Of a DNA stretch of 64,000 bases, positions 15,605-46,562 are shown one piece after another. The DNA lies in the NCBI GenBank assembly GCA_012365435.1, contig GCA_012365435.1_4518.1. One strand, 5' to 3'. Source of the DNA: a phage. The notes under the pieces were generated by a model. It saw nothing but the letters and a program-made list of their open reading frames with translations, was not told the DNA's origin and did not search any database. A program made the position numbers and the translations under genes. Position 1 is the first letter of the stretch. Every line of letters begins with the position of its first letter.

Positions 15605-16705
15605 TTACGCTGTGAAGATTTTATCCCACATCGCAACAACTGCATCTCGATTATACTTCTTCCATACTGCTTCAGCACGTTTAACTCGAGCTTCGTATGT
15701 GTCAGTGAATTCTAATACAGCTTTTGTGTAAAGCGCAACTACTTCTTTCTTAGGAGTAGAGGAATCAATTTCTACACGCACAGTATCTGGGTCGTATTCG
15801 AATGTAGCATGAGGATAATCCTTAAAAACTAACTGGATTACAGGGACACCTTTAGAGATGGCTTCAATAGAACTATTCTCTACCGTGCCTGTGTCAGGAC
15901 ACGTATTAATAAGTGCTTTAGCTGTTTTAAGACGTTCCATGATTTCACTGTGTGGAGCATCAATAATAACAGGATATTTAGCTGGTGGTGCCCATTTGCT
16001 TGGACAATAACCAATACCATTTTCGCCTAGTGCTTTAATTGCTTCAAGAGCAACATCAGTGCGACGCATCTTAGTGTCATAACGTTGAGCACTAATAATC
16101 AAATCAGTTGCCGGGAGAACTTCTGGCTTTTCAGACAAACAAATAACCGGGTAGTCATCAGGTTCAAATAATGGATTTTCACGCCAGTAGTCATAATCAA
16201 TTTTGTCAGTAAGAGCTGAAGTCATATGACAATATTTACGTTCAAATTCACGGAATGCTTTAGTAGGAGCATAGCTCTTCCCACCGTTCTTGTGAATCTG
16301 GATAGTCTGATCCCAAATTTGAACAATACCACGAGACACCGGTTCAAACGGCGTAGCCATAAAATTCTTATGAACTTTAGAGAGTCCAGCATCTTTAATT
16401 GCTTGGACAGTTAGTTTAGTCGGTTCCATAGTAACAACAAAATCGTATTCATGGATGCCGGCTAGTTCAACAATCTTACGAGCCATAGTATAACTCATAC
16501 CTAGACTGAATTTAGTCAGATGACCAACAGGATGATGATTAACCTTCCAATCACCAAATGTGTCATTATCAAAACCGATATAATCAATATCGGCACCGAT
16601 AGAAACTAAATATTTCAACACATTTAAATGTACTGCTTCAAGACCACCTTGTACACGTTCTGGGTTAAATGGGACCGCACGAGATGGGATAAACATAACT
16701 TTCAT
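15605..16705 (-). CDS. Putative glycosyltransferase (GT-B-like), candidate DNA hmC sugar transferase
   Basis: 366 aa; GT-like C-terminal block (GVPVIQLV...); occupies the slot where T4 has gene 60/mobA; no alpha-gt/beta-gt elsewhere in window. Confidence 0.55.
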   Translation of the reverse strand: MKVMFIPSRAVPFNPERVQGGLEAVHLNVLKYLVSIGADIDYIGFDNDTFGDWKVNHHPVGHLTKFSLGMSYTMARKIVELAGIHEYDFVVTMEPTKLTVQAIKDAGLSKVHKNFMATPFEPVSRGIVQIWDQTIQIHKNGGKSYAPTKAFREFERKYCHMTSALTDKIDYDYWRENPLFEPDDYPVICLSEKPEVLPATDLIISAQRYDTKMRRTDVALEAIKALGENGIGYCPSKWAPPAKYPVIIDAPHSEIMERLKTAKALINTCPDTGTVENSSIEAISKGVPVIQLVFKDYPHATFEYDPDTVRVEIDSSTPKKEVVALYTKAVLEFTDTYEARVKRAEAVWKKYNRDAVVAMWDKIFTA

Positions 16706-35655: not shown

Positions 35656-35997
35656 TTAAAAGAATTTAAATTTTTTCTTGGTTCGTTCATTAAAAGCTTG
35701 TTGTACTTGCATTGTAACACATTTTTCAACATGTGGCGCAAGTTCTGCTTTTCTGTCCTGGTCAAGAACTGCAAAGTCCATTACGATTTTACCATCAACC
35801 CAGTCTAGTTTTGTAATATAGACTATATGATGGGAACCGTCTTCAAGTGTAATCAGAATCTCTTGAATGACATTTTCCATTGCTGAACGGATAATTTTAA
35901 GAGATTCATTAAACACTCGTTCTTTGCGAATGTCCTCCCCTTCCGAAGAAGGGGATTCATCAACGATTTCTAGATTTAAATCATCGAGATTATTCAT
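35656..35997 (-). CDS. 40: Head vertex assembly chaperone gp40
   Basis: Start at ATG (MNNLDDLNLEIVDE) about 113 aa; overlaps uvsX stop as in T4. Confidence 0.6.
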   Translation of the reverse strand: MNNLDDLNLEIVDESPSSEGEDIRKERVFNESLKIIRSAMENVIQEILITLEDGSHHIVYITKLDWVDGKIVMDFAVLDQDRKAELAPHVEKCVTMQVQQAFNERTKKKFKFF

Positions 35998-37162
35998 CGA
36001 AATCTTCCATTTCGTCAAGGTCGTTTTCAATATCTGCTGCAGACGGAGCATCAGAAGCTTTAACAGGAACTTTAGTTGTTGCTTTGCAATTAATAAGGTC
36101 GTTAACAGCGTCATCAACTTCTTTAATAGAAGAGATAGCACCTAGTTTATATTTAGTTTCAATTGCATCTCGGAAAGGTTTGTGTTTAAACAACGGTCCC
36201 CAGAATTCTACACAATCAGTAGCTTTAGCACGCCACGATTTCTCTTCACGAATCATTTCGCCTGTTTCTTCGTCAAGGAATTCACGAGCATACCAACCGG
36301 CTTTAGGCTTAACAACAAATCCAATTTCAGTTGCCATTTCTAACAAGCCACTGAATGGGTCGATACCACCATCAAAATTAACTGTGATTGGGAAAGTAGA
36401 TTTTTCTTTAACTGTACGAGATTTTTCTGCTTTCAACGTGAAGTCATAACCGGTCAATTCTGTACCTTCTTTAACCTGACGTTTAGAGATAAAAAATACC
36501 GTGTTGGCAGAATAAAGAATACCTGTACCACCGCCCATAATCTCTTTAGGATATAGTCCGCCGATTTCCATTGCTGTATGGTTTATTGCAACACATGGAA
36601 TATCTTTAATAGTCAGATAAGGAGTCACAATGCGGAACAGAGATTTAAGTGCCTTAGCACGAGACATATCACCTACGACTTTCTCGTTCAATGCATCTTC
36701 GGTTTCTTTCTTAGATGCAGTATTACCGATTGAATCGATAAAGATAATAACTTTATCACCGCGTTCAATCGCGTCAAGCTGATTAGTCATATCAACTTTA
36801 AGTTGTTCGACGGACTGAATTGGTGTATGAACTACGCGATCCAAATCAACACCCATTGAACGAAAATAAGATTCTGAAGCACCAAATTCAGAATCATAGA
36901 ACAAACAAATTGCATCTTTATATTTCTTCATATACGCTGCAACCATAGTTAGTCCAAACAGCGTTTTAAAGTGTTTAGAAGGAGCAGCAAAAATAGTTAA
37001 GCCTGATTGCAATCCTGCATTCAGAGCACCACCTAGTGCGATATTCAACATCGGAATACGAGTAGGGACTTCATCACGATTATTAAACAGCTTAGACTTA
37101 GTCAAGTCTGCAGTCATTTTAGAAGTAGAAGCTTTAATCAGACGAGATTTTAAATCAGACAT
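35990..37162 (-). CDS. uvsX: Recombinase UvsX (RecA-like)
   Basis: 390 aa; RecA-fold motifs; acidic C-terminal tail; matches T4 UvsX length and position. Confidence 0.9.
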   Translation of the reverse strand: MSDLKSRLIKASTSKMTADLTKSKLFNNRDEVPTRIPMLNIALGGALNAGLQSGLTIFAAPSKHFKTLFGLTMVAAYMKKYKDAICLFYDSEFGASESYFRSMGVDLDRVVHTPIQSVEQLKVDMTNQLDAIERGDKVIIFIDSIGNTASKKETEDALNEKVVGDMSRAKALKSLFRIVTPYLTIKDIPCVAINHTAMEIGGLYPKEIMGGGTGILYSANTVFFISKRQVKEGTELTGYDFTLKAEKSRTVKEKSTFPITVNFDGGIDPFSGLLEMATEIGFVVKPKAGWYAREFLDEETGEMIREEKSWRAKATDCVEFWGPLFKHKPFRDAIETKYKLGAISSIKEVDDAVNDLINCKATTKVPVKASDAPSAADIENDLDEMEDFDE

Positions 37163-37260
37163 TGTATTTTTCCATAGGCATCATTATATTTTACTCATGT
37201 TTAAAAGATAAGATGATTATATACTAAGGGTTATACAGCATTTAAAACTTTAAATGGCTC

Positions 37261-37809
37261 TTAACGAGCCCATTTAATGATTTCTGTAATCAAATAATTA
37301 CGTTCGCTTGCATTAAATCCTATAACTTTGTTAGCACCATCATGATTAAGTAATTGATACGTTTGGATTTTGTTATGAATTGCAAACTCTTCAAAATATG
37401 AAATGACTGTATTAAAACCGAATGAAGACAAAGTAATAAGGTCGTCTTCAAAACTTTCAGTCATTTCGTTACGTGTTAAAATAATTGTGAACACATCATG
37501 GTTTTGGCAAAGACGAACATAATCCTGTTCATAAACATCAAGAACCGAGTCCGCATCTTGTCGAATACGTCCATAAACCCAGTTACTAATATATCCACGG
37601 TCTAACAGATAAATCTTAGTAGGGTCTAAATAATTCAACATCGTTTCGAAACAACCAACTTCATTTCGAGACTTAACATCGAAACGTCCATCAACTGTTC
37701 GTTTAGGGAAATCAATCTTTACATATCTTTCACTAATTTCCATTATGTCATTAATGAAAGTTGTTTTACCGGCATTATCCGGGCCATCTACTAAAATAAT
37801 TTTAGCCAT
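37261..37809 (-). CDS. P-loop kinase, thymidylate/cytidylate kinase-like
   Basis: 182 aa; Walker A VDGPDNAGKTT; LLDRGY resembles DRY lid motif of NMP kinases; sits in the T4 beta-gt slot. Confidence 0.55.
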   Translation of the reverse strand: MAKIILVDGPDNAGKTTFINDIMEISERYVKIDFPKRTVDGRFDVKSRNEVGCFETMLNYLDPTKIYLLDRGYISNWVYGRIRQDADSVLDVYEQDYVRLCQNHDVFTIILTRNEMTESFEDDLITLSSFGFNTVISYFEEFAIHNKIQTYQLLNHDGANKVIGFNASERNYLITEIIKWAR

Positions 37810-37810
37810 T

Positions 37811-38710
37811 TTATTCCTCGATTACGACATCTTCGTATTTAGGTATATTATACGGCGAAGAAATTAAAGCGTTAAAGTAGATGAACTCACCAAGACCTGG
37901 ATGGAATACTTCTTCAGGATTTTCGAAATATTGAATCTTCGGACGTCCTTTAAGAATTTGATAGTACTCAGTTTTAGTTGGTTTAAAAATTCGAATCAGC
38001 GCTTCTTCAGGATACTTATTTCTGTCAAAGCTATTATTTGGATCGGTTATATAAAGCGGTTGACCTAATTGAATTGCGCATTCAACCACTTGTTCAAAAC
38101 GATAACACGGGTCACTAATTCGAAATGGATGAAAAATACCATCTAGATGAATAGGAGCCAAATCACCTACAAGACGCTGCATGACGGAAGGACGTATAAC
38201 TTTCTGCGTTACGATAATCTTATTACCATCGGCACCTGCGTTAACCAGCACTTCCTTTTGACGTTCATTCAACACAGTAGTTTGAAGTGAACGATTAACA
38301 GACAACATGTCGGTTTTTAAGAATTCATCAATATAAAAACGTGGTTTATTAGGGTCTGCAGTGATATTGAAATTGAATTCTACGTCAAAAGCGCCATCAT
38401 ATCCAGTGATATCTGTGATTAGAAAATCACAATCATAATAAGCAATTAATGAATCAACCACAAATTCATTTTCAGACCAGAAATATTTACGAGTGTTATA
38501 CGCGTTATCTTTATACCATAATGGAACAAACTTAAATTCCGGGAAAAGACGTTCACATTCTTTAATATCAGATGCATTACGTGGATATGTAATCACATCA
38601 CCTGGATTAGCACGGTGCAAATGAAGTTGGAAGTTGCCATCCTTAAGGATAGCATACTGTCCAGTTTCATAAGACCGCATACTCAAGATTGGTACGCGGA
38701 AAATAGCCAT
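37811..38710 (-). CDS. Hypothetical protein (299 aa) in the T4 beta-gt slot
   Basis: ORF track; no recognisable similarity to T4 beta-glucosyltransferase. Confidence 0.5.
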   Translation of the reverse strand: MAIFRVPILSMRSYETGQYAILKDGNFQLHLHRANPGDVITYPRNASDIKECERLFPEFKFVPLWYKDNAYNTRKYFWSENEFVVDSLIAYYDCDFLITDITGYDGAFDVEFNFNITADPNKPRFYIDEFLKTDMLSVNRSLQTTVLNERQKEVLVNAGADGNKIIVTQKVIRPSVMQRLVGDLAPIHLDGIFHPFRISDPCYRFEQVVECAIQLGQPLYITDPNNSFDRNKYPEEALIRIFKPTKTEYYQILKGRPKIQYFENPEEVFHPGLGEFIYFNALISSPYNIPKYEDVVIEE

Positions 38711-39426
38711 TAGTCAAGGAATCCTTTAACATAATCAAAATCACGTTCAAACACATGGGCACTTACCATGGTATGAGTATAATCACCAACTTCTACGCCG
38801 CATTCGTTAGCGATATAATGAAGTAATTTTCCTTGGAGATAAAAATCCAACTGCATAACAACAGCACAGTTCTGAGAACGCATATGACAGTGGGTATAAA
38901 GCTTACCATCGCGAATATAATAAGTCACTGAGTCAGTACATGGATATTCAAGTGTTTCGTCCGAATCAAGCAAAGCCTGATCAGAACTTTCTAGAATTTG
39001 GAACACAACTCTTCGAGAGTTAGGTTTCTCTTTAAGTTCTTTTAGAAGAGCTGGTAATTGGGCCGCAATGCGAGGACCATAGAAAGTGTTGAAGTTCGCC
39101 GGCAAAGCGTCTGATTTAGGTTTAGAAATAAATTTAGCGACATTAGGATATGCCTTAAACGCTTCTTCTGCATCAGTACCACCAGAAATCATAAACTTCC
39201 AGAAGTCTTCGGCATATTCATAAGAGATGCGGTTAATACGTGGGTCGGTCATTTTGAATGATGATGGATTGTCAACAACTACTGTCATGGACCTGATTTC
39301 ATTACAACGTCCAATACGAGAATCAGTTACGAATTCAGGATTTTCTAAAATTTCACGATTGACTGCTTTAAATGCGGCTTGAAAATCTGCGGCTTTGATA
39401 TATTTCATTGTGTTATGTTTTCCCAT
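38710..39426 (-). CDS. 42: dCMP hydroxymethylase gp42 (thymidylate-synthase fold)
   Basis: 238 aa; block YPCTDSVTYYIRDGKLY...MRSQNCAVVMQLDF parallels FMCTNTVQYLIRDKK...MRSNDVVFGF of T4 gp42 as recalled; GAGGT RBS. Confidence 0.65.
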   Translation of the reverse strand: MGKHNTMKYIKAADFQAAFKAVNREILENPEFVTDSRIGRCNEIRSMTVVVDNPSSFKMTDPRINRISYEYAEDFWKFMISGGTDAEEAFKAYPNVAKFISKPKSDALPANFNTFYGPRIAAQLPALLKELKEKPNSRRVVFQILESSDQALLDSDETLEYPCTDSVTYYIRDGKLYTHCHMRSQNCAVVMQLDFYLQGKLLHYIANECGVEVGDYTHTMVSAHVFERDFDYVKGFLD

Positions 39427-39468
39427 GTTTACCTCAATACAATTTATTATATACTCAATTCGTAAAGC

Positions 39469-39708
39469 TTATTTGAATTTCTTGGCAATGTTGATATAAC
39501 GTAAAGCTTCAGAATCTATACTTCCAAGAACACTATGAAGGAATGCATCAGTGTAGTATTCCAATTGAACAGGTTCTTTAATCACTTTAGCCGCTTTGGT
39601 TTCAAACAGGCCCATAAGGGCCTTTTTAAGAATTTGTTCGTTAGTGTTCAGTTTTATAGTCAAAATCTCTTCATTAAGTTGGTGGTTAAAAGTTTTTCTA
39701 GAAATCAT
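39469..39708 (-). CDS. Hypothetical protein (79 aa), not Imm-like
   Basis: ORF track; hydrophilic, unlike membrane protein Imm that occupies this slot in T4. Confidence 0.45.
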   Translation of the reverse strand: MISRKTFNHQLNEEILTIKLNTNEQILKKALMGLFETKAAKVIKEPVQLEYYTDAFLHSVLGSIDSEALRYINIAKKFK

Positions 39709-40865
39709 TCCGGGTACCTCAAAGCGTCATCAGAGTTAGTTATATCAATAATAGATATAGAGTTTTCTGATAACCCATTTTTAGATAACTGACGTTTATA
39801 ATATCTTTCACAATATGTACACGTCGTCCCGCAGATTTCATTAGCACAATCGAAATCTGGATGTCTGAACCACCTTTTTTCTAAAAAACCGTCTAACAAT
39901 GAGGTTTCAATATTTACTGTATGTGAAAACTCAGTCTCATTTTCAAGAGTGAAAATAGTCTCTAAAGGCTTCCACAGTTCTAACAAATTACCTTCAAACT
40001 TTTCAGAAGCGTATGCTTCAAGAACTTTCAAAATGTAGTCTGTGCTACCTGTACGTCCTGAAACTTTGAATTGAGTGATACCAATATCATTATAAAGTTT
40101 CAAATCTTGAGGACGAACAAAACGAGTTCTCAGCCAGTTAAATGGGTCTGTATCACGAGCTTTAATACAGTGCTGCATAGGATATCCATTTAAGGATTTA
40201 GCATCATCAGCGGTAACATCAGTACTATGGAAAATATAGCAAGAGTCACGATAGCTACAATGTGTTGTATACCCTTTACCAGCATTAGAACAGAACTCAT
40301 TTACAAGAACTTCAAATATTATATTGTTCTTATTGCAAAACTCTGCTGCACGCTTCAGGAAAGAAACTGAACGGTTCTTATGAATTCCGCAACAGACTTT
40401 TTTGATGTTATATTGGTCGTGCAAGTATTTGATTTGAGTTACAGCATCAACATGTAGAATTGTTGAAACTTCAATCTCAATGTCTTTATTGACTTCACGA
40501 ACAATTTCCATAACAACAGGGTTAGCGATAGTAATACGCCATACGCCTATTGACCAAAGATACTGAACATAATCCTGAATAGCTTTCTTCTTCCACTCAA
40601 CTAGTTCTCTTTTTGAACCAGGATTTATCGTGTTGAGTGTATAGTTAAAGCAAATACCTAATTCGTTACAACGTTTAACGTAGTCTTCTAACATCTTTTT
40701 GTCAACGTCAGGAAGCCTAAAATCAGGTCTGGCTGCTACAAAAGCCATTTCTCTTGTAGAGCCGTATACTTCGTTTATCAAGCTATTAGGATAAGTTTTA
40801 TTGAGCTCTACGATTTTATCAAGAAGAGCTAAATCAAAATTCGTTCCGATTTTAAAAGTATTCAT
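39705..40865 (-). CDS. U32-family-like Cys-rich enzyme (putative Fe-S dependent; function unknown)
   Basis: 386 aa; blocks NPVVMEIVRE and EIEVSTILHVDAV resemble DPGLIMLVRE / PIHLSVQANAV of U32 proteins; Cys clusters VCCG..FCS..HCS..SC and C-x4-C-x3-C-x2-C. Confidence 0.5.
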   Translation of the reverse strand: MNTFKIGTNFDLALLDKIVELNKTYPNSLINEVYGSTREMAFVAARPDFRLPDVDKKMLEDYVKRCNELGICFNYTLNTINPGSKRELVEWKKKAIQDYVQYLWSIGVWRITIANPVVMEIVREVNKDIEIEVSTILHVDAVTQIKYLHDQYNIKKVCCGIHKNRSVSFLKRAAEFCNKNNIIFEVLVNEFCSNAGKGYTTHCSYRDSCYIFHSTDVTADDAKSLNGYPMQHCIKARDTDPFNWLRTRFVRPQDLKLYNDIGITQFKVSGRTGSTDYILKVLEAYASEKFEGNLLELWKPLETIFTLENETEFSHTVNIETSLLDGFLEKRWFRHPDFDCANEICGTTCTYCERYYKRQLSKNGLSENSISIIDITNSDDALRYPE

Positions 40866-40921
40866 TTTTTTGCATCTCGCGTTAATTGATGCGATGGTTT
40901 TTGCAGGTCTTACTTAAATTA

Positions 40922-41323
40922 TTATAGATTCGGTTTATATGATTTAAATGTTTCGAATTCGCCTTTATTCATAAGAGCTTTGAATTCGTCAGGACGCATA
41001 GCTTTGTCGTCGATAATCCAATCATATACTGGTTTATGTGTTAGCAAATTATGGTACTTCAAGCCAATGTTTGCCAAGTTCTGAATCAGACTTGGGAGAA
41101 TGTCAATTGCTATACGACCAGGACCTACTGACTTCATACCACGAGCAGTGTAAAGCGTTATGGTATGCCCTGCATCATACAGGGCATTAATGGCAGACAC
41201 CATTTCGACGTCCGGTTTGAAGTTCACGTAATCACGATTGTTATTCCACTCTGTTATACAATCATCGACATCAAAACAAAGATTAAGCATGTTTTCTACA
41301 CGGTGCATTAGATTCGTTCCCAT
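40922..41323 (-). CDS. HAD-superfamily small phosphatase (KdsC-like)
   Basis: 133 aa; HAD motif I FDVDDCIT near N-terminus; coordinates from ORF track. Confidence 0.55.
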   Translation of the reverse strand: MGTNLMHRVENMLNLCFDVDDCITEWNNNRDYVNFKPDVEMVSAINALYDAGHTITLYTARGMKSVGPGRIAIDILPSLIQNLANIGLKYHNLLTHKPVYDWIIDDKAMRPDEFKALMNKGEFETFKSYKPNL

Positions 41324-42993
41324 TGATGAGTGATATCGCCACCGATTGGACGATAGGAAACACCAGTTTCTTTATCAGTTAGTACCCATTTACCAGGATT
41401 TTTTGTAATCAGAGTAGCCGTTACAGGTTCTGCTACGTCATAACTAATAGAGCCGTCTTGAAGTACACGGCCCATGTTACGTAATTGCTTAGTCAGAAGT
41501 TCCATACCTTTATAATATGCGGCTACCGCTTTAAGTGGATTATTCTTGAAATAACCACCTAATGCAATCCAGATAATTGCTACTGCCAAATGATGATACT
41601 CGTTAAACGAACTCATCTTTCCATATTTGTAAACTAATGGATTGATGTTAATAGTCACATTACAAGTTGTTTCATCAATAGTAAACTGTCCCCAGGTCGG
41701 ATTAGCATTGAATTCATCATAACCTGAAACAGCATAAAGCACTTTAGCTTCATCATATAATTTTGGCCCGTAAATCTTGGTTTCACCAAAATATCCACGA
41801 GGGTCGATAAACTTGACTTCGCCGTTATCAGTAATCATAGTATTACTGAAGTTCGGGTCACCGTGAATAACAGAGTACTGTCCCTGAGAACGATTATGAT
41901 AACGAATAAGGTGTTCTAAAGCTTGTTTCAGCATTGGCTTCAGACGTCCAATCTTAGTGTAGTTCACGTGTGTGATTTTACCAAATGAATCAATCAATGG
42001 CTGAATGCTTTCACAACGATCAATAACTTTCGTATAGAATTCTTTAGTGAAATCACGACGAACAGTTTCAGGACTTACAAAATAAGTGTCTGTGCTGAAT
42101 TTCAGTGCATCTAAAATTGCATCAACAATTTGTGGACGAGCAAGACTTGATTTGGATTTAATATATTCAAATGCTGGCTTACCTTTAATACGTTCCATTT
42201 CAAAATTATTTTCATTTACCGAAACTAACTGAGGAACTGAATCTGATTTCACTTTCAAATACCATGAAATCTCATCTTTTTGAAGAGCTCGACCTTGTTC
42301 GGTTAACGCGAATTTAGTTACAGTTTCTTCGCCAATTTCAACTGCATTAAAACTACGATTAAGTTCACGAACTTCATGGGCCTTTTCAAGTTTAGGCATA
42401 TCACCTAAATCAATTAGATTCATAAGCTCTGATTTATTGAATGCACTGCCGTAAAGGAATTCTACGAAATCACGTCCTTTGCAGTATTCATGAATTTCCT
42501 CATCAGTAGAACCCATGTAGAATTCCCAGTCTTTGAACTGATAAATTCCTACAACATTACCGCCTGTTGAACCTACGTTAGTGATATTTTCACCATCGAA
42601 ATTATATCGACATTCATCACCCTTAACATAGATTGCGTTAACATTCCAAGACCATGAACCAAAATCAGGAATAATATCACACCAGTTAACAATTACGTTA
42701 TGGCCATCTAAATCTTTGTATAATTTAGCAAGAGCATAAGCAGAACCATACGCTTCATCAACTGTACGAATAGTCACATTGAACCCTTCTTGCTCGCAAT
42801 AAGCTCGAACAGTTTCAGCAAATTTTGAATGAACTACTACAATAATTTCATCTGCGCCAAGGTCAGAATAAATTGTATACAAATTGCTCAGAATAGTGTC
42901 TTGTTTATAGTTAACAAGAACTTTTGGAATATGATGCGTTATTGGATACAAACGAGTTGCCAGTCCAGCACCAAGAATAACAGCTTTTTTCAT
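41308..42993 (-). CDS. Bifunctional sugar-1-phosphate nucleotidyltransferase / APH-like sugar kinase
   Basis: 561 aa; N-terminal MKKAVILGAGLATRLYPIT (RmlA/MurU-type NTase); C-terminal VIHGDPNFSNTMI and FIDPRG (APH/choline-kinase-type catalytic motifs). Confidence 0.7.
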   Translation of the reverse strand: MKKAVILGAGLATRLYPITHHIPKVLVNYKQDTILSNLYTIYSDLGADEIIVVVHSKFAETVRAYCEQEGFNVTIRTVDEAYGSAYALAKLYKDLDGHNVIVNWCDIIPDFGSWSWNVNAIYVKGDECRYNFDGENITNVGSTGGNVVGIYQFKDWEFYMGSTDEEIHEYCKGRDFVEFLYGSAFNKSELMNLIDLGDMPKLEKAHEVRELNRSFNAVEIGEETVTKFALTEQGRALQKDEISWYLKVKSDSVPQLVSVNENNFEMERIKGKPAFEYIKSKSSLARPQIVDAILDALKFSTDTYFVSPETVRRDFTKEFYTKVIDRCESIQPLIDSFGKITHVNYTKIGRLKPMLKQALEHLIRYHNRSQGQYSVIHGDPNFSNTMITDNGEVKFIDPRGYFGETKIYGPKLYDEAKVLYAVSGYDEFNANPTWGQFTIDETTCNVTININPLVYKYGKMSSFNEYHHLAVAIIWIALGGYFKNNPLKAVAAYYKGMELLTKQLRNMGRVLQDGSISYDVAEPVTATLITKNPGKWVLTDKETGVSYRPIGGDITHQWERI

Positions 42994-43174
42994 GTTGTGG
43001 TCCTCATTGGTAAGTAGGTGTATTGTACACTATTCTAGTTAAAGCATTCATACTTTGCTTGTAGTCCAATCATAATCCATCCAATTACAAGTGTTGGAAT
43101 CATTACTGGAGCCGTTAAGCTCCAGTAGATAGTCATGACAAGCATCAATAGTAAAAGTCCTATTGTTATTGCTT

Positions 43175-43810
43175 TCATTGTTCGCCTCGTAACATGGCAC
43201 CTAGTGCACCGCCTGGGTGGAACTTAAGGAAGTCATTAGAGGTAAATCCACGTTCAGACGAAAGGTTGATAGCGAACGTATCGATAAGCGCTAACAACAA
43301 TGTAGTGGACATGGTCGGAGCCAGAGAATTCTCATCAACCTCTACCGCGATGCCTGTACAGAAAGAGTAATCAAAAAGGGCTTCATTTTCTTGCGGAATG
43401 TCCGGGTTACAATGCAACAGAATCTGTTTGACATTTGGACGAATCATTTTAAGATGCTTAGCCACGCCTATCATTTCTTCAGTTTTACCAGAACGACTAA
43501 TATGAATCAACACATCATTAGGCGCAATGAATCCTGCATCACCGTGAGAATAATGCCCGGTGTTCAAGTACATACTTGGGATACCGAGTGAAGCAAATGT
43601 CTCAGAAGCTTTAGTTGCAATATTAGCATTCTTACCAACACCTGTAATAATTACTCGGCTTTCATAATTACTAAGTCCAGGGCGTCGAAGAGTTTCTAGA
43701 ATAGCATTATAACGAGCAGGGTTTTGACTAATTACTTTGGCCATAGCGGCCAAAGAAGAAGCTTGTTTTATAATTGCGTCAATAGCGATAGTAATAGGAG
43801 TAGTTTTCAT
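43175..43810 (-). CDS. SIS-domain sugar-phosphate isomerase, KdsD/GutQ-like (putative D-arabinose-5-phosphate isomerase)
   Basis: 211 aa; ITGVGKNANIA...ISRSGKTEE...LAPTMSTT...FHPGGALG mirrors the KdsD SIS domain motifs as recalled; no CBS domains. Confidence 0.7.
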   Translation of the reverse strand: MKTTPITIAIDAIIKQASSLAAMAKVISQNPARYNAILETLRRPGLSNYESRVIITGVGKNANIATKASETFASLGIPSMYLNTGHYSHGDAGFIAPNDVLIHISRSGKTEEMIGVAKHLKMIRPNVKQILLHCNPDIPQENEALFDYSFCTGIAVEVDENSLAPTMSTTLLLALIDTFAINLSSERGFTSNDFLKFHPGGALGAMLRGEQ

Positions 43811-43850
43811 ATTTCTCTCATTTAATTAGTTTACCGTCCATGGCATTATA

Positions 43851-46562
43851 TCAAAAATCGAACATATCGAACAGAGATGCTTTCTTCTCGTAATCGAGTT
43901 TCGCTGCTGATGTGAATCCTTCAAGTGGTTTAATAAATGTCTTCTCAAGGAGAACAGTGTAGTCCATCCAATGAAGTACGTCGTCTTTAATTAAATCTGT
44001 GATTTCAGTGCCAGAAGGCCATGCGATACATTTATCACCGAATGGGTTTCCTTCACGTAAAGGCAGAACATATACTTTTTCACCTTCTACAACTTGTGGT
44101 GCATCAATATTACCTTTGATAGCTCGGTTATATGTCAAAATTCCACGAATATGGAACGGGCATTTAGGTCCTGGATATCCACCCACATCGTATTTAGCAA
44201 TGTTATTCGCAGAAGATACTGACGCGATGCTAATATAATTCAATTGACGGAATTCTTTTTCAAACTCTTTAAAATATTCTTGTAATGATTCTTCACCTTC
44301 TTGAAGCATACGACGAATACATTCTTTAAGAGCTTTCTGTACTGCTTTAGGGGTCGAAGATTTCTGAGTCTCTAGACCCATGATTTTGAGTTTAGGCTCA
44401 GCGTATCTGGTTCCTTCCATATCCCACACGTTTAATGCATAACGTTTCTTACCAGTCCAGAATCCACCAATACCTTTAGAACCGAGTGGAGGACCAGCGA
44501 TAGCTTCTCGGTCCATGAACATCAAATGTTGCTTATTATTCATGTATTCGCACATTTCACGGAAACCTCTATCAATAGCAGGTTCCATACGTTCACGTGC
44601 AAACTTATCTAAGAAGTCTACCCAGTGGTTGGTATCACGGAATTTAGATTCACCAACCTTATCGATAATTTTATCAGCAGATACGTAAATAGAGTCTGTA
44701 TCACCATAAAGAACGAAAGCTTCACCTTCTGTACCACAAACTTCATTCAGATATTCATTAACTTTACGTTCAATCCACTGTAAAGCCATTTGACCGAATG
44801 TTGTGATTGCAGTTGCATTACGCAAATCATAATAACGGAACCAAACGTTTCCAAGTGCACCATAAAGCGAGTTGATGAGCAATTTACGGTTAATCTGTGC
44901 AGTCATACCTGCAACTTCAGTACGTTGAGCTCTAAACAACATTTCATTAAGAGATTTAGAAGACAACTTTTTAATCTTTTCTTTAATCTCATCGCTGAAG
45001 TCGAAACGATAATCAACATCTAATGGTTCGTCAACAGAAAGATTAGGATTATGCAATGCCTCTTTAATTATTTCGCCATTACGTTGAGCCGCAAGCATGT
45101 AACCTTTATGTTCTTTACGTTGATTAAAGACCTTAGTGATTTCAGTTGGAACTACACCATCACGGTCTTTATAATACATCATGCCGTTAGGAGAACAACT
45201 GTACACATCTGAAGGACGTTCAGCGATTGCGTTAATATAATCATGCAATGGAGCTACTTTAAACGTTCCTGCTATTGTTTCCGGGCTAATATTCACTTGG
45301 CGAATAATACTTGGATACAGAGATGTAAGGTCGAAACTCATTACATATTTGTATCGATTTGGAATAGGTTCCTTAACAAAAGCGCCAGGATAAGGTTGAA
45401 CCGGGTGAGAACGACCTTGTGGAATCACCTTGTTCTGCTCTTTAAGGCTATTAAAAATAATAGCATCCCATGTTTTAATTGGGCTAAACACAGATTGAAT
45501 CTGTATCTTAGCATAATAACCCATGTCCAAACTCAAGTTGATGAACTGACGCTTAGAATCAATTTGCAATACACGATACACGTCGATAATGTTATAAGAA
45601 ATATACCGTTGGTGATTGCTTTCACGAAGCTTAGAAATAGGGCCGTCATATTTCAGTTTACCAACGTTCAATTCAAATTCTGAAATGTAATCCAGAGAAT
45701 ACGATGGTTGATTGGTAAAAGAGAATTTTTTGTAAAGGTCAATGTAATCAAGAACAGAGATACCGAACAATGTAATGATTTCACGAGAACCATACATGTT
45801 TTCGATAACTTTAACACGAGTTTTACGATGTGGTGATAAACGTTTCGCAGTAGATTCGCCAAAAATATTCTTGATTCGGTTATACACATATGGAATATCA
45901 AATGACTCAACGTTCCATCCAGTCAAAATGACAGGAGTTTTCTGTTGCCAGAAGTTGAGATATTCCATCAACAATTCTTTTTCGTTATCGAACGGCATAT
46001 AAATGATTTTATCGATAATTTCAGATGGAACTTCATCACCGCCTTGTTCTTGAAGCTTTGCAGCGATTTCAATAGACCATTCTTCTACATTACCATATGG
46101 AGAATTCAATAGATCAAATACGTAGAACCTGTCGTCAATTGAGTCATAATGGGTGATAGCATCAATCGGATGTTTTGCTTGTGACGGCTCAGGGAACCCA
46201 TCCGGAGATGTTACTTCGATGTCGAAGTTAGCCACACGAATTTTTGTATGGTCGTATTTGATTTCATAGTTATAAGTGTCAGACAAATACGCCAATTTGA
46301 AATCGTCCATGCCAAGTGCTTCAAGTCCGATATCTTCCATGCGTTTAATCCATTGGGAGGCATCACGCATATTAGCGAACAACTTACGAGTACACGGCTT
46401 ACCGTAGATATCGAAATATTTCGTAGCCTGACTTTCTGGACAATGAGCAAACAGTGATGGTTTATATTCTACTTCACGAGTACGTTCACGGCCATTAGAA
46501 TCGATGTAACGTTCAAAAATTGAATCACCAATCTGTTCAACCGTTAAGTAAAATTCTTTCAT
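43851..46562 (-). CDS. 43: DNA polymerase gp43 (family B)
   Basis: 903 aa; sequence matches RB69 gp43 as recalled (MKEFYLTVEQIGDSIFERY..., exo DIE and pol DTDS motifs). Confidence 0.95.
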   Translation of the reverse strand: MKEFYLTVEQIGDSIFERYIDSNGRERTREVEYKPSLFAHCPESQATKYFDIYGKPCTRKLFANMRDASQWIKRMEDIGLEALGMDDFKLAYLSDTYNYEIKYDHTKIRVANFDIEVTSPDGFPEPSQAKHPIDAITHYDSIDDRFYVFDLLNSPYGNVEEWSIEIAAKLQEQGGDEVPSEIIDKIIYMPFDNEKELLMEYLNFWQQKTPVILTGWNVESFDIPYVYNRIKNIFGESTAKRLSPHRKTRVKVIENMYGSREIITLFGISVLDYIDLYKKFSFTNQPSYSLDYISEFELNVGKLKYDGPISKLRESNHQRYISYNIIDVYRVLQIDSKRQFINLSLDMGYYAKIQIQSVFSPIKTWDAIIFNSLKEQNKVIPQGRSHPVQPYPGAFVKEPIPNRYKYVMSFDLTSLYPSIIRQVNISPETIAGTFKVAPLHDYINAIAERPSDVYSCSPNGMMYYKDRDGVVPTEITKVFNQRKEHKGYMLAAQRNGEIIKEALHNPNLSVDEPLDVDYRFDFSDEIKEKIKKLSSKSLNEMLFRAQRTEVAGMTAQINRKLLINSLYGALGNVWFRYYDLRNATAITTFGQMALQWIERKVNEYLNEVCGTEGEAFVLYGDTDSIYVSADKIIDKVGESKFRDTNHWVDFLDKFARERMEPAIDRGFREMCEYMNNKQHLMFMDREAIAGPPLGSKGIGGFWTGKKRYALNVWDMEGTRYAEPKLKIMGLETQKSSTPKAVQKALKECIRRMLQEGEESLQEYFKEFEKEFRQLNYISIASVSSANNIAKYDVGGYPGPKCPFHIRGILTYNRAIKGNIDAPQVVEGEKVYVLPLREGNPFGDKCIAWPSGTEITDLIKDDVLHWMDYTVLLEKTFIKPLEGFTSAAKLDYEKKASLFDMFDF

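Follow-up and report, generated by a model that had tools for sequence, protein, structure and literature searches.

Two adjacent genes on the minus strand of a 64,000-nucleotide stretch of phage DNA (contig GCA_012365435.1_4518.1 of GenBank assembly GCA_012365435.1; the whole stretch is called the window here) encode a P-loop kinase of 182 amino acids (aa) and a protein of 299 aa. Both genes are present where a first-pass annotation, made from the sequence alone, had placed them, and its description of the site as the "beta-gt slot" is apt, as the uvsX-42 interval of phage T4 holds segA and b-gt and the two genes of the window occupy the same interval. By megablast, the window belongs to the genus Mosigvirus, with ATK47 and phiEC1 as the best matches (98.6-98.8% identity), and at least 80% of the query is covered by 151 phage records. 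Together with the gene upstream of them, the two genes are arranged as follows:

37261-37809, minus strand, ATG start: 182-aa kinase, orthologue of RB69 gp45, predicted deoxynucleoside monophosphate (dNMP) kinase of thymidylate-kinase fold
37811-38710, minus strand, ATG start: 299-aa compact glycosyltransferase of predicted GT-B fold, intact form of RB69 ORF046c+047c, predicted first arabinofuranosyltransferase
38710-39426, minus strand: 238-aa thymidylate-synthase (ThyA) homologue of RB69 gp48 type, the upstream flank, assigned as 5-hydroxy-dCMP synthase from phmmer and key residues

The two genes belong to an already described system, the arabinosyl-5-hydroxycytosine (ara-5hoC) DNA hypermodification cluster of RB69-like phages. 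This system was published in 2025-2026, and finding it by a genome scan is a rediscovery. In RB69, gp45 to gp55 make up the ara-5hoC biosynthetic cluster (Lee et al., NAR 2026, PMC13326640), in which gp45, with a fold like that of thymidylate kinases, is entered as a "nucleotide kinase" and gp46:47 as "arabinosyltransferase 1", both functions being predicted (PMC13326640). The window kinase shares 98% amino-acid identity with RB69 gp45, and the 299-aa gene can be aligned over its full length to RB69 ORF047c+046c, with about 98% of the nucleotides identical. The sole difference from RB69 gp45 and gp46:47 (gp78 and gp79 in phage DLP3) is that the 299-aa gene of the window is not split; the RB69 record has one extra T, which breaks the frame of the transferase gene. 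Besides these orthologues, the window contains a synthase with the D169N substitution, genes for the supply of UDP-arabinose and a second glycosyltransferase, all of which are expected of this cluster. In RB69 and in the Acinetobacter phage DLP3, cytosine is fully replaced by mono-, di- or tri-arabinosylated 5-hydroxycytosine (5hoC) (PMC13326640), and the presence of mono- or di-arabinosyl-5-hydroxycytosine in virion DNA has been shown in the literature for RB69 and for Mosigvirus NP.

The gene upstream of the 299-aa gene had been taken for gene 42, coding for dCMP hydroxymethylase, and a pathway based on hydroxymethylcytosine had been envisaged. Judged by its residues, however, the encoded ThyA homologue is a 5-hydroxy-dCMP (5hodCMP) synthase. 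It is nearly identical to PDB entry 9iqc (phmmer E 2.8e-160 to 9iqc/9ir2) and has E, N and D at the positions corresponding to E. coli ThyA residues 143, 169 and 177, which is the full synthase signature of D169N plus N177D and L143E, whereas T4 gp42 has D at position 169. Because D169N is diagnostic of 5hodCMP synthases (PMC13326640), the neighbour is not a hydroxymethylase. RB69 gp48 converts dCMP to 5hodCMP, binds flavin and takes the oxygen from O2 (PMC13326640), and the DNA of RB69-type phages carries ara-5hoC rather than a derivative of hydroxymethylcytosine (PMC13326640).

The same trio of synthase, transferase and kinase recurs in about 345 cultured phages, and also in distant metagenomic loci. 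The transferase is found in 349 and the kinase in 344 cultured phage records, with 24-100% amino-acid identity and nearly matching genus counts. Given these numbers and the confident AlphaFold models of both proteins described below, the two are real genes and not chance open reading frames (ORFs). We scanned 60 fetched loci with profiles of the transferase and kinase families. Wherever the identity was at least 33% and the locus continued beyond the transferase gene, the kinase was present, either as the next gene downstream or at another place in the cluster. Two of these loci are metagenomic phage contigs of 356 kb and 122 kb, in which the identities are 37-38% for the transferase and 31% for the kinase, with overlapping ORFs; D169N ThyA homologues are encoded in these loci as well. 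Among still more distant loci, most have an ORF resembling thymidylate kinases (TMPKs) beside the transferase homologue, and in two (L049 and L052) no kinase-like ORF was found within 6 kb. In the window, the stop codon of the synthase gene overlaps the ATG of the 299-aa gene (TAATG), and the kinase gene follows after a 1-nucleotide spacer, with a GAGGA Shine-Dalgarno sequence inside the 3' end of the 299-aa gene. The three core genes are translationally coupled and are inherited as one unit. Promoter and terminator scans of positions 37000-44000 gave counts not above those of shuffled sequence, and the operon structure is for this reason read from the gene overlaps alone.

The Walker A motif of the kinase, VDGPDNAGKTT, spans residues 7-17, as the first-pass annotation had it, whereas its DRGY motif (residues 70-73), which had been read as lid-like, aligns with the NMP-binding DR(Y/H) motif of TMPKs (NMP, nucleoside monophosphate). 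The AlphaFold2 model has a pLDDT of 88.2 and is less confident at residues 31-50 and 121-130, the NMP-binding loop and the lid. The kinase combines the fold, the P-loop and the DR(Y/H) motif of a thymidylate kinase. Its family is small, with 293 representatives at E<=1e-3 among 1.84 billion in an exhaustive HMMER search. We aligned the family by MAFFT, via intermediate members, with E. coli Tmk, taken from the genome sequence, and, as a lead only, with M. tuberculosis TMPK. The family retains the P-loop, including Asp11, together with FPK(R), DRxxxSNxxY and two acidic residues where the lid ends; G9, D11, G14, K15, D70, R71, S75, N76, Y79, R113, D122 and D123 vary little or not at all among 38 representatives. 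These motifs bind the deoxynucleoside monophosphate in TMPKs, and their retention speaks for a mononucleotide as the substrate, as opposed to a sugar or a DNA base. A modified nucleotide or a sugar had both been put forward as substrates. An NMP-kinase-like enzyme tied to cytosine modification agrees with the first of these, but a sugar-kinase role is unlikely, because the deoxynucleotide-binding motifs are kept and because the cluster already has an AfhE-like sugar kinase/uridylyltransferase.

The window kinase differs in several respects from established thymidylate kinases (PF02223/TIGR00041, with the vaccinia, E. coli and M. tuberculosis enzymes). It falls below the thresholds of both families, with no match to PF02223 at E<=0.1 and with 15.6 bits against TIGR00041, for which the cut-off is 83.25. 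A profile search of the PDB gave weak N-terminal TMPK matches only, and when the kinase profile was compared with the single E. coli Tmk sequence by hhalign, the P-loop alone was aligned. Unlike thymidylate kinases, the family has one conserved Arg in the lid (R113) together with a (T/D)Rxxxxx(F/Y)xDD(L/K)I motif of its own, no conserved counterpart of the TMPK Arg that reads thymine O4 could be aligned, and the family was found only in the phage modification clusters examined.

Some distant relatives of the kinase have features of their own. In the TMPK-like ORFs that adjoin the most distant transferase homologues (L053 and L056-L060), the Walker A motif closes with GKD(T/S) in place of GK(T/S). 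Other remote members of the family (P0179, P0180, P0185 and others, 314-357 aa) are extended at the C-terminus; the extension matches the HhH-GPD DNA-glycosylase domain PF00730 in P0179 (7.5e-6) and P0180 (2.1e-4). P0185 and P0189 gave no Pfam match and show the same C-terminal motifs by eye; also by eye, the extension of these fusions looks like the glycosylase domain of MBD4. The gene for P0179 (L063:7001-8074) has a D169N ThyA homologue, an FMN reductase and a SIS isomerase as neighbours, that for P0180 (L069:1446-2390) is overlapped by a D169N ThyA homologue, and that for P0185 (L066:127-1092) lies beside a remote transferase relative (hhalign probability 92%).

For the 299-aa protein, profile searches gave no Pfam or NCBIfam match and no PDB match at the sequence level, and its 138 homologues in a large protein collection are all unnamed. 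Its AlphaFold2 model, built on 53 homologues (pLDDT 95.1), has two Rossmann-like domains with GT-B topology, which predicts a glycosyltransferase of the GT-B fold. Motifs conserved throughout the family are SMRSY, FxPFRxSDxxY, TDPN, KxEYY and HPGxx(E/D), and the protein does not belong to the GT4-like families by sequence, as tested with Pfam Glycos_transf_1 and Glyco_trans_4. Compared with T4 beta-glucosyltransferase (beta-GT), the 299-aa protein is without sequence similarity, does not have it as its closest fold, is shorter (299 versus 351 aa) and is acidic where the T4 enzyme is basic. It is also predicted to use arabinofuranose and the 5-OH group, as opposed to the 5-CH2OH acceptor of T4 beta- and alpha-glucosyltransferase. 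The two glycosyltransferases of the window (299 and 366 aa) have no detectable sequence similarity to each other, and the counterpart of the crystallised glycosyltransferase of phage HY126 is the 366-aa ORF and not the 299-aa protein. For a homologue of the 299-aa protein, TH1_063 of the Shewanella phage Thanatos, UDP-xylose pyrophosphorylase activity has been reported (PMC12838424).

Taken together, the interpretation given in the first-pass annotation is partly supported: the kinase and the transferase were called correctly, and it erred on the chemistry and on the identity of the gene next to them. The 299-aa protein had been offered as a possible second transferase of unknown fold, and the predicted GT-B fold bears out the former and replaces the latter; RB69 gp46:47 has likewise been modelled as a glycosyltransferase (PMC13326640). 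An ordinary dTMP kinase paired with a structural protein, the outcome that the annotation itself had named as speaking against its interpretation, is not what we found, as the kinase failed the Tmk thresholds and the model of the 299-aa protein is that of a GT-B enzyme.

The remaining genes of the cluster, the second glycosyltransferase and the downstream flank are located as follows:

15605-16705, minus strand: 366-aa second glycosyltransferase, RB69 gp3 type, equivalent to the glycosyltransferase of phage HY126 known from crystals (PDB 9iqz/9ir0; phmmer E 1.6e-248)
35990-37162: uvsX, the downstream flank (Pfam T4_UVSX_C, 1e-38)
39469-39708, minus strand: 79-aa ORF, RB69 ORF049c type (PHROG 8601, unknown function)
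39705-40865, minus strand: 386-aa U32 "peptidase"-like protein, RB69 gp50 type, possible prephenate-dependent hydroxylase (Pfam Peptidase_U32, 7e-11)
40922-41323, minus strand: HAD-type phosphatase, RB69 gp51/AfhF-like (PHROG 1238; NCBIfam capsule biosynthesis phosphatase, 4e-13)
41308-42993, minus strand: 561-aa bifunctional sugar kinase/UDP-arabinose pyrophosphorylase, RB69 gp52:53/AfhE-like (Pfam and PMC13326640)
43175-43810, minus strand: arabinose-5-phosphate isomerase, RB69 gp55 type (NCBIfam KpsF/GutQ, 2e-32, and KdsD, 7e-31)

In the 561-aa protein, the N-terminus matches Pfam NTP_transferase (1e-9) and the C-terminus gives matches of the APH/fructosamine-kinase-like kind; the formation of UDP-arabinose has been shown for its homologue AfhE (PMC13326640). 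The role of the AfhF-like HAD phosphatase is the conversion of arabinose-1,5-bisphosphate to arabinose-1-phosphate (PMC13326640). Several of these genes are poorly represented in public records: frameshift errors split both the 299-aa and the 561-aa gene in the RB69 record, the intervals of the same two genes carry no annotation in the ATK47 RefSeq record (L062), and many records mislabel the ThyA homologue as "dCMP hydroxymethylase" and the HAD phosphatase as "phosphoheptose isomerase". In two distant loci (L002:4739-5293 and L063:8068-8613), a flavodoxin-like or NADPH-dependent FMN reductase gene adjoins that of the D169N ThyA homologue; such a neighbour fits a flavin-dependent hydroxylase that needs reduced flavin, and the window cluster is without such a gene. 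The 98-bp spacer between the kinase gene and uvsX (window positions 37163-37260) reads aaaTGCTGTAtaacccttagtaTATAAT and resembles, by eye only, a T4 MotA-dependent middle promoter for uvsX, with a MotA box followed by a -10 element.

We propose a pathway that we consider moderately probable as a whole, in which the 182-aa kinase acts on modified dCMP and the 299-aa enzyme adds the first arabinose to DNA after replication. The upstream ThyA homologue would hydroxylate dCMP to 5hodCMP with flavin and O2, as has been shown for RB69 gp48. The 182-aa kinase would then convert 5hodCMP to the diphosphate, leading towards the triphosphate and polymerisation. UDP-arabinofuranose (UDP-Araf) would come from the products of genes a short way upstream, namely the isomerase, the AfhE-like protein and the HAD phosphatase. 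In the next step, the predicted GT-B enzyme of 299 aa would attach an alpha-arabinose, the first and base-proximal one, to the 5-OH of 5hoC, most likely in DNA that has already been replicated, and the 366-aa glycosyltransferase would add the second arabinose, as has been proposed for the enzymes of RB69 gp3 type (PMC13326640). The UDP-Araf route, with isomerase, AfhE-like and AfhF-like enzymes, and the addition of later arabinoses on DNA have been shown elsewhere (PMC13326640). RB69 gp159, a dNMP kinase of the T4 gp1 type, converts 5hodCMP to 5hodCDP, and when it is co-expressed with gp48, 5hoC enters the DNA of E. coli (PMC13326640). Speaking for the pathway are the orthology with RB69 gp45 and gp46:47, the TMPK-type motifs of the kinase, the D169N synthase next door, the full set of UDP-arabinose genes, the tight gene junctions and the joint occurrence of transferase and kinase. 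We favour transfer on DNA because of the T4 precedent and because 5hodCTP is clearly made and polymerised.

A number of observations weigh against this pathway. A second 5hodCMP kinase looks redundant, because the gp1-type kinase already converts 5hodCMP to 5hodCDP. The canonical EX7E motif of GT4 enzymes is not conserved in the transferase family, where position 267, the would-be first E, is K or T in most homologues. The 299-aa protein is acidic (pI 5.1, net charge -10), while the DNA-binding T4 beta-GT has a pI of 9.05 and the second glycosyltransferase of the window a pI of 6.2; we treat this comparison as a faint pointer to the acceptor and not as a test. The glycosyltransferases of DLP3, including the homologue gp79, were inactive on 5hoC DNA with UDP-Araf or UDP-arabinopyranose (UDP-Arap) when purified singly, and the authors cannot tell whether the first arabinose is transferred onto the mononucleotide or onto DNA (PMC13326640). 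No published assay was found for either RB69 protein, gp45 or gp46:47.

The main rival explanation moves the first glycosylation ahead of replication: the 299-aa transferase would arabinosylate 5hodCMP, the adjacent kinase would be specialised for arabinosyl-5hodCMP, the polymerase would incorporate arabinosyl-5hodCTP, and only the second sugar would be added on DNA. No other natural example of nucleobase glycosylation ahead of replication is known to us. The host enzymes Nth and Nei excise 5hoC from DNA, which makes naked 5hoC in DNA a liability and counts in favour of such a scheme. It also explains better why the transferase and kinase genes are coupled, being adjacent or overlapping across deep divergence, why there is a kinase besides the gp1-type enzyme that already serves 5hodCMP, why the DLP3 transferase homologue was inactive on 5hoC DNA in vitro, in a study that leaves the level of the substrate open (PMC13326640), and why the transferase is acidic when T4 beta-GT is not. 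The mononucleotide-binding motifs kept in the kinase are in line with it as well. However, as the synthase and the gp1-type kinase put 5hoC into E. coli DNA, 5hodCTP does form and is polymerised, and any unglycosylated 5hoC in DNA would still require a transferase acting at the DNA level. Sugars are added on DNA both in the T4 paradigm and in the DLP3 gp76/77 assay, and a TMPK-type pocket would have to accommodate a pentose at C5. We regard glycosylation ahead of replication as rather unlikely.

More distant explanations concern each of the two proteins on its own. The kinase might phosphorylate the 5-OH of 5hoC in DNA, as a DNA-base kinase of the 5-hydroxymethyldeoxyuridine (5-hmdU) DNA kinase (5-HMUDK) kind, a notion to which the fusion of distant family members to an HhH-GPD DNA-glycosylase-like domain, beside D169N ThyA homologues and a distant transferase relative, lends some colour, as it recalls the pairing of 5-HMUDK with HhH-fold amino-acid:DNA transferases (PMC8989533). 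The 5-hmdU DNA kinase system also has a small P-loop kinase, related in architecture, beside a ThyA-family gene and a group-transfer enzyme (PMC8989533), but in the window the partner is a predicted GT-B glycosyltransferase and the DR motif is retained. M6 gp54, a true 5-HMUDK, has FEG where the window family and TMPKs have the invariant NMP-phosphate-binding DR, and a phosphate on the acceptor oxygen would block glycosyl transfer. Membership of the 5-HMUDK family was rejected, as neither the window kinase nor the kinase domain of P0179 matches PF18748 (M6 gp54, 7.7e-18) and hhalign aligns little beyond the P-loop region, with 81% probability. We consider such a base kinase very improbable, and we find it equally hard to credit that the kinase is an ordinary thymidylate kinase paralogue supplying dTDP, unrelated to the modification. 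PHROG 761 and many GenBank records do say "thymidylate kinase", and the fold is that of a TMPK. Yet the protein falls far short of the TIGR00041 cut-off and does not match PF02223, its family is small, and the genus counts of its 344 phage records are nearly those of the transferase; moreover, the gene is absent from the T4 uvsX-42 interval, and dTMP is, by annotation, covered by gp1 in T4-type phages. Least credible of all is that the 299-aa protein makes the activated sugar, as a UDP-pentose pyrophosphorylase, rather than transferring it. TH1_063 gave a UDP-xylose peak with UTP and xylose-1-phosphate in vitro (PMC12838424), but this evidence is a single liquid chromatography-mass spectrometry assay of one His-tagged preparation. 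The model of the 299-aa protein has a GT-B fold and no nucleotidyltransferase match was obtained, and an NTP-transferase domain is already present in the 561-aa protein of the cluster, the homologue of which, AfhE, makes UDP-arabinose.

Upstream of the core genes, the 386-aa U32-like protein gives a weak match to NCBIfam UbiU (9e-4). RlhA and TrhP belong to the U32 family. Both depend on prephenate to hydroxylate pyrimidines at C5, giving 5-hydroxy-C and 5-hydroxy-U in RNA, as described in the enzymology literature. In the table of PMC13326640, RB69 gp50 appears as a "sugar or heterocycle reductase". We found the U32-like gene in 222 phage records, with identities between genera of 82% or more. 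Of the 17 genus names among these records, the ten most common, which cover about 210 records, are all of Enterobacterales, and Acinetobacter, of which 57 phages carry the transferase and the kinase, is outside these ten. In Erwinia phage Virsaitis27 and at least 10 other loci, a small ORF lies between the U32 gene and the 5hodCMP synthase gene (L072:3992-5502, L004, L008-L010, L016-L018, L021-L022 and L025-L026), and Pfam identified all six of the small ORFs that we scanned as chorismate mutases of type II (CM_2, 3e-12 to 9e-9, above the gathering score). The U32 gene and the adjacent chorismate mutase suggest an oxygen-independent, prephenate-dependent route to 5-hydroxycytosine in phages of facultative anaerobes; a literature search found no paper proposing such a route. 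The 79-aa ORF of the window has a 4-base overlap with the end of the U32 gene. It could not be recognised as a chorismate mutase, with no Pfam match even at E<=10 and no similarity to the Virsaitis27 enzyme. Its N-terminal motif, MRRINHxMNE, recurs in EcS1 and Virsaitis27 as a fusion to the chorismate mutase.

The ara-5hoC cluster explains the resistance of RB69-like phages to many restriction enzymes and some CRISPR systems, and is therefore relevant to phage therapy and phage engineering. As the system is known, the residual interest lies in the substrates of the kinase and of the 299-aa transferase, which are the least characterised steps of the ara-5hoC pathway. Knowing whether the first sugar is added at the level of the nucleotide or of DNA, and why there is a second nucleotide kinase, would complete the pathway, and such knowledge could yield enzymes for making glycosylated DNA.

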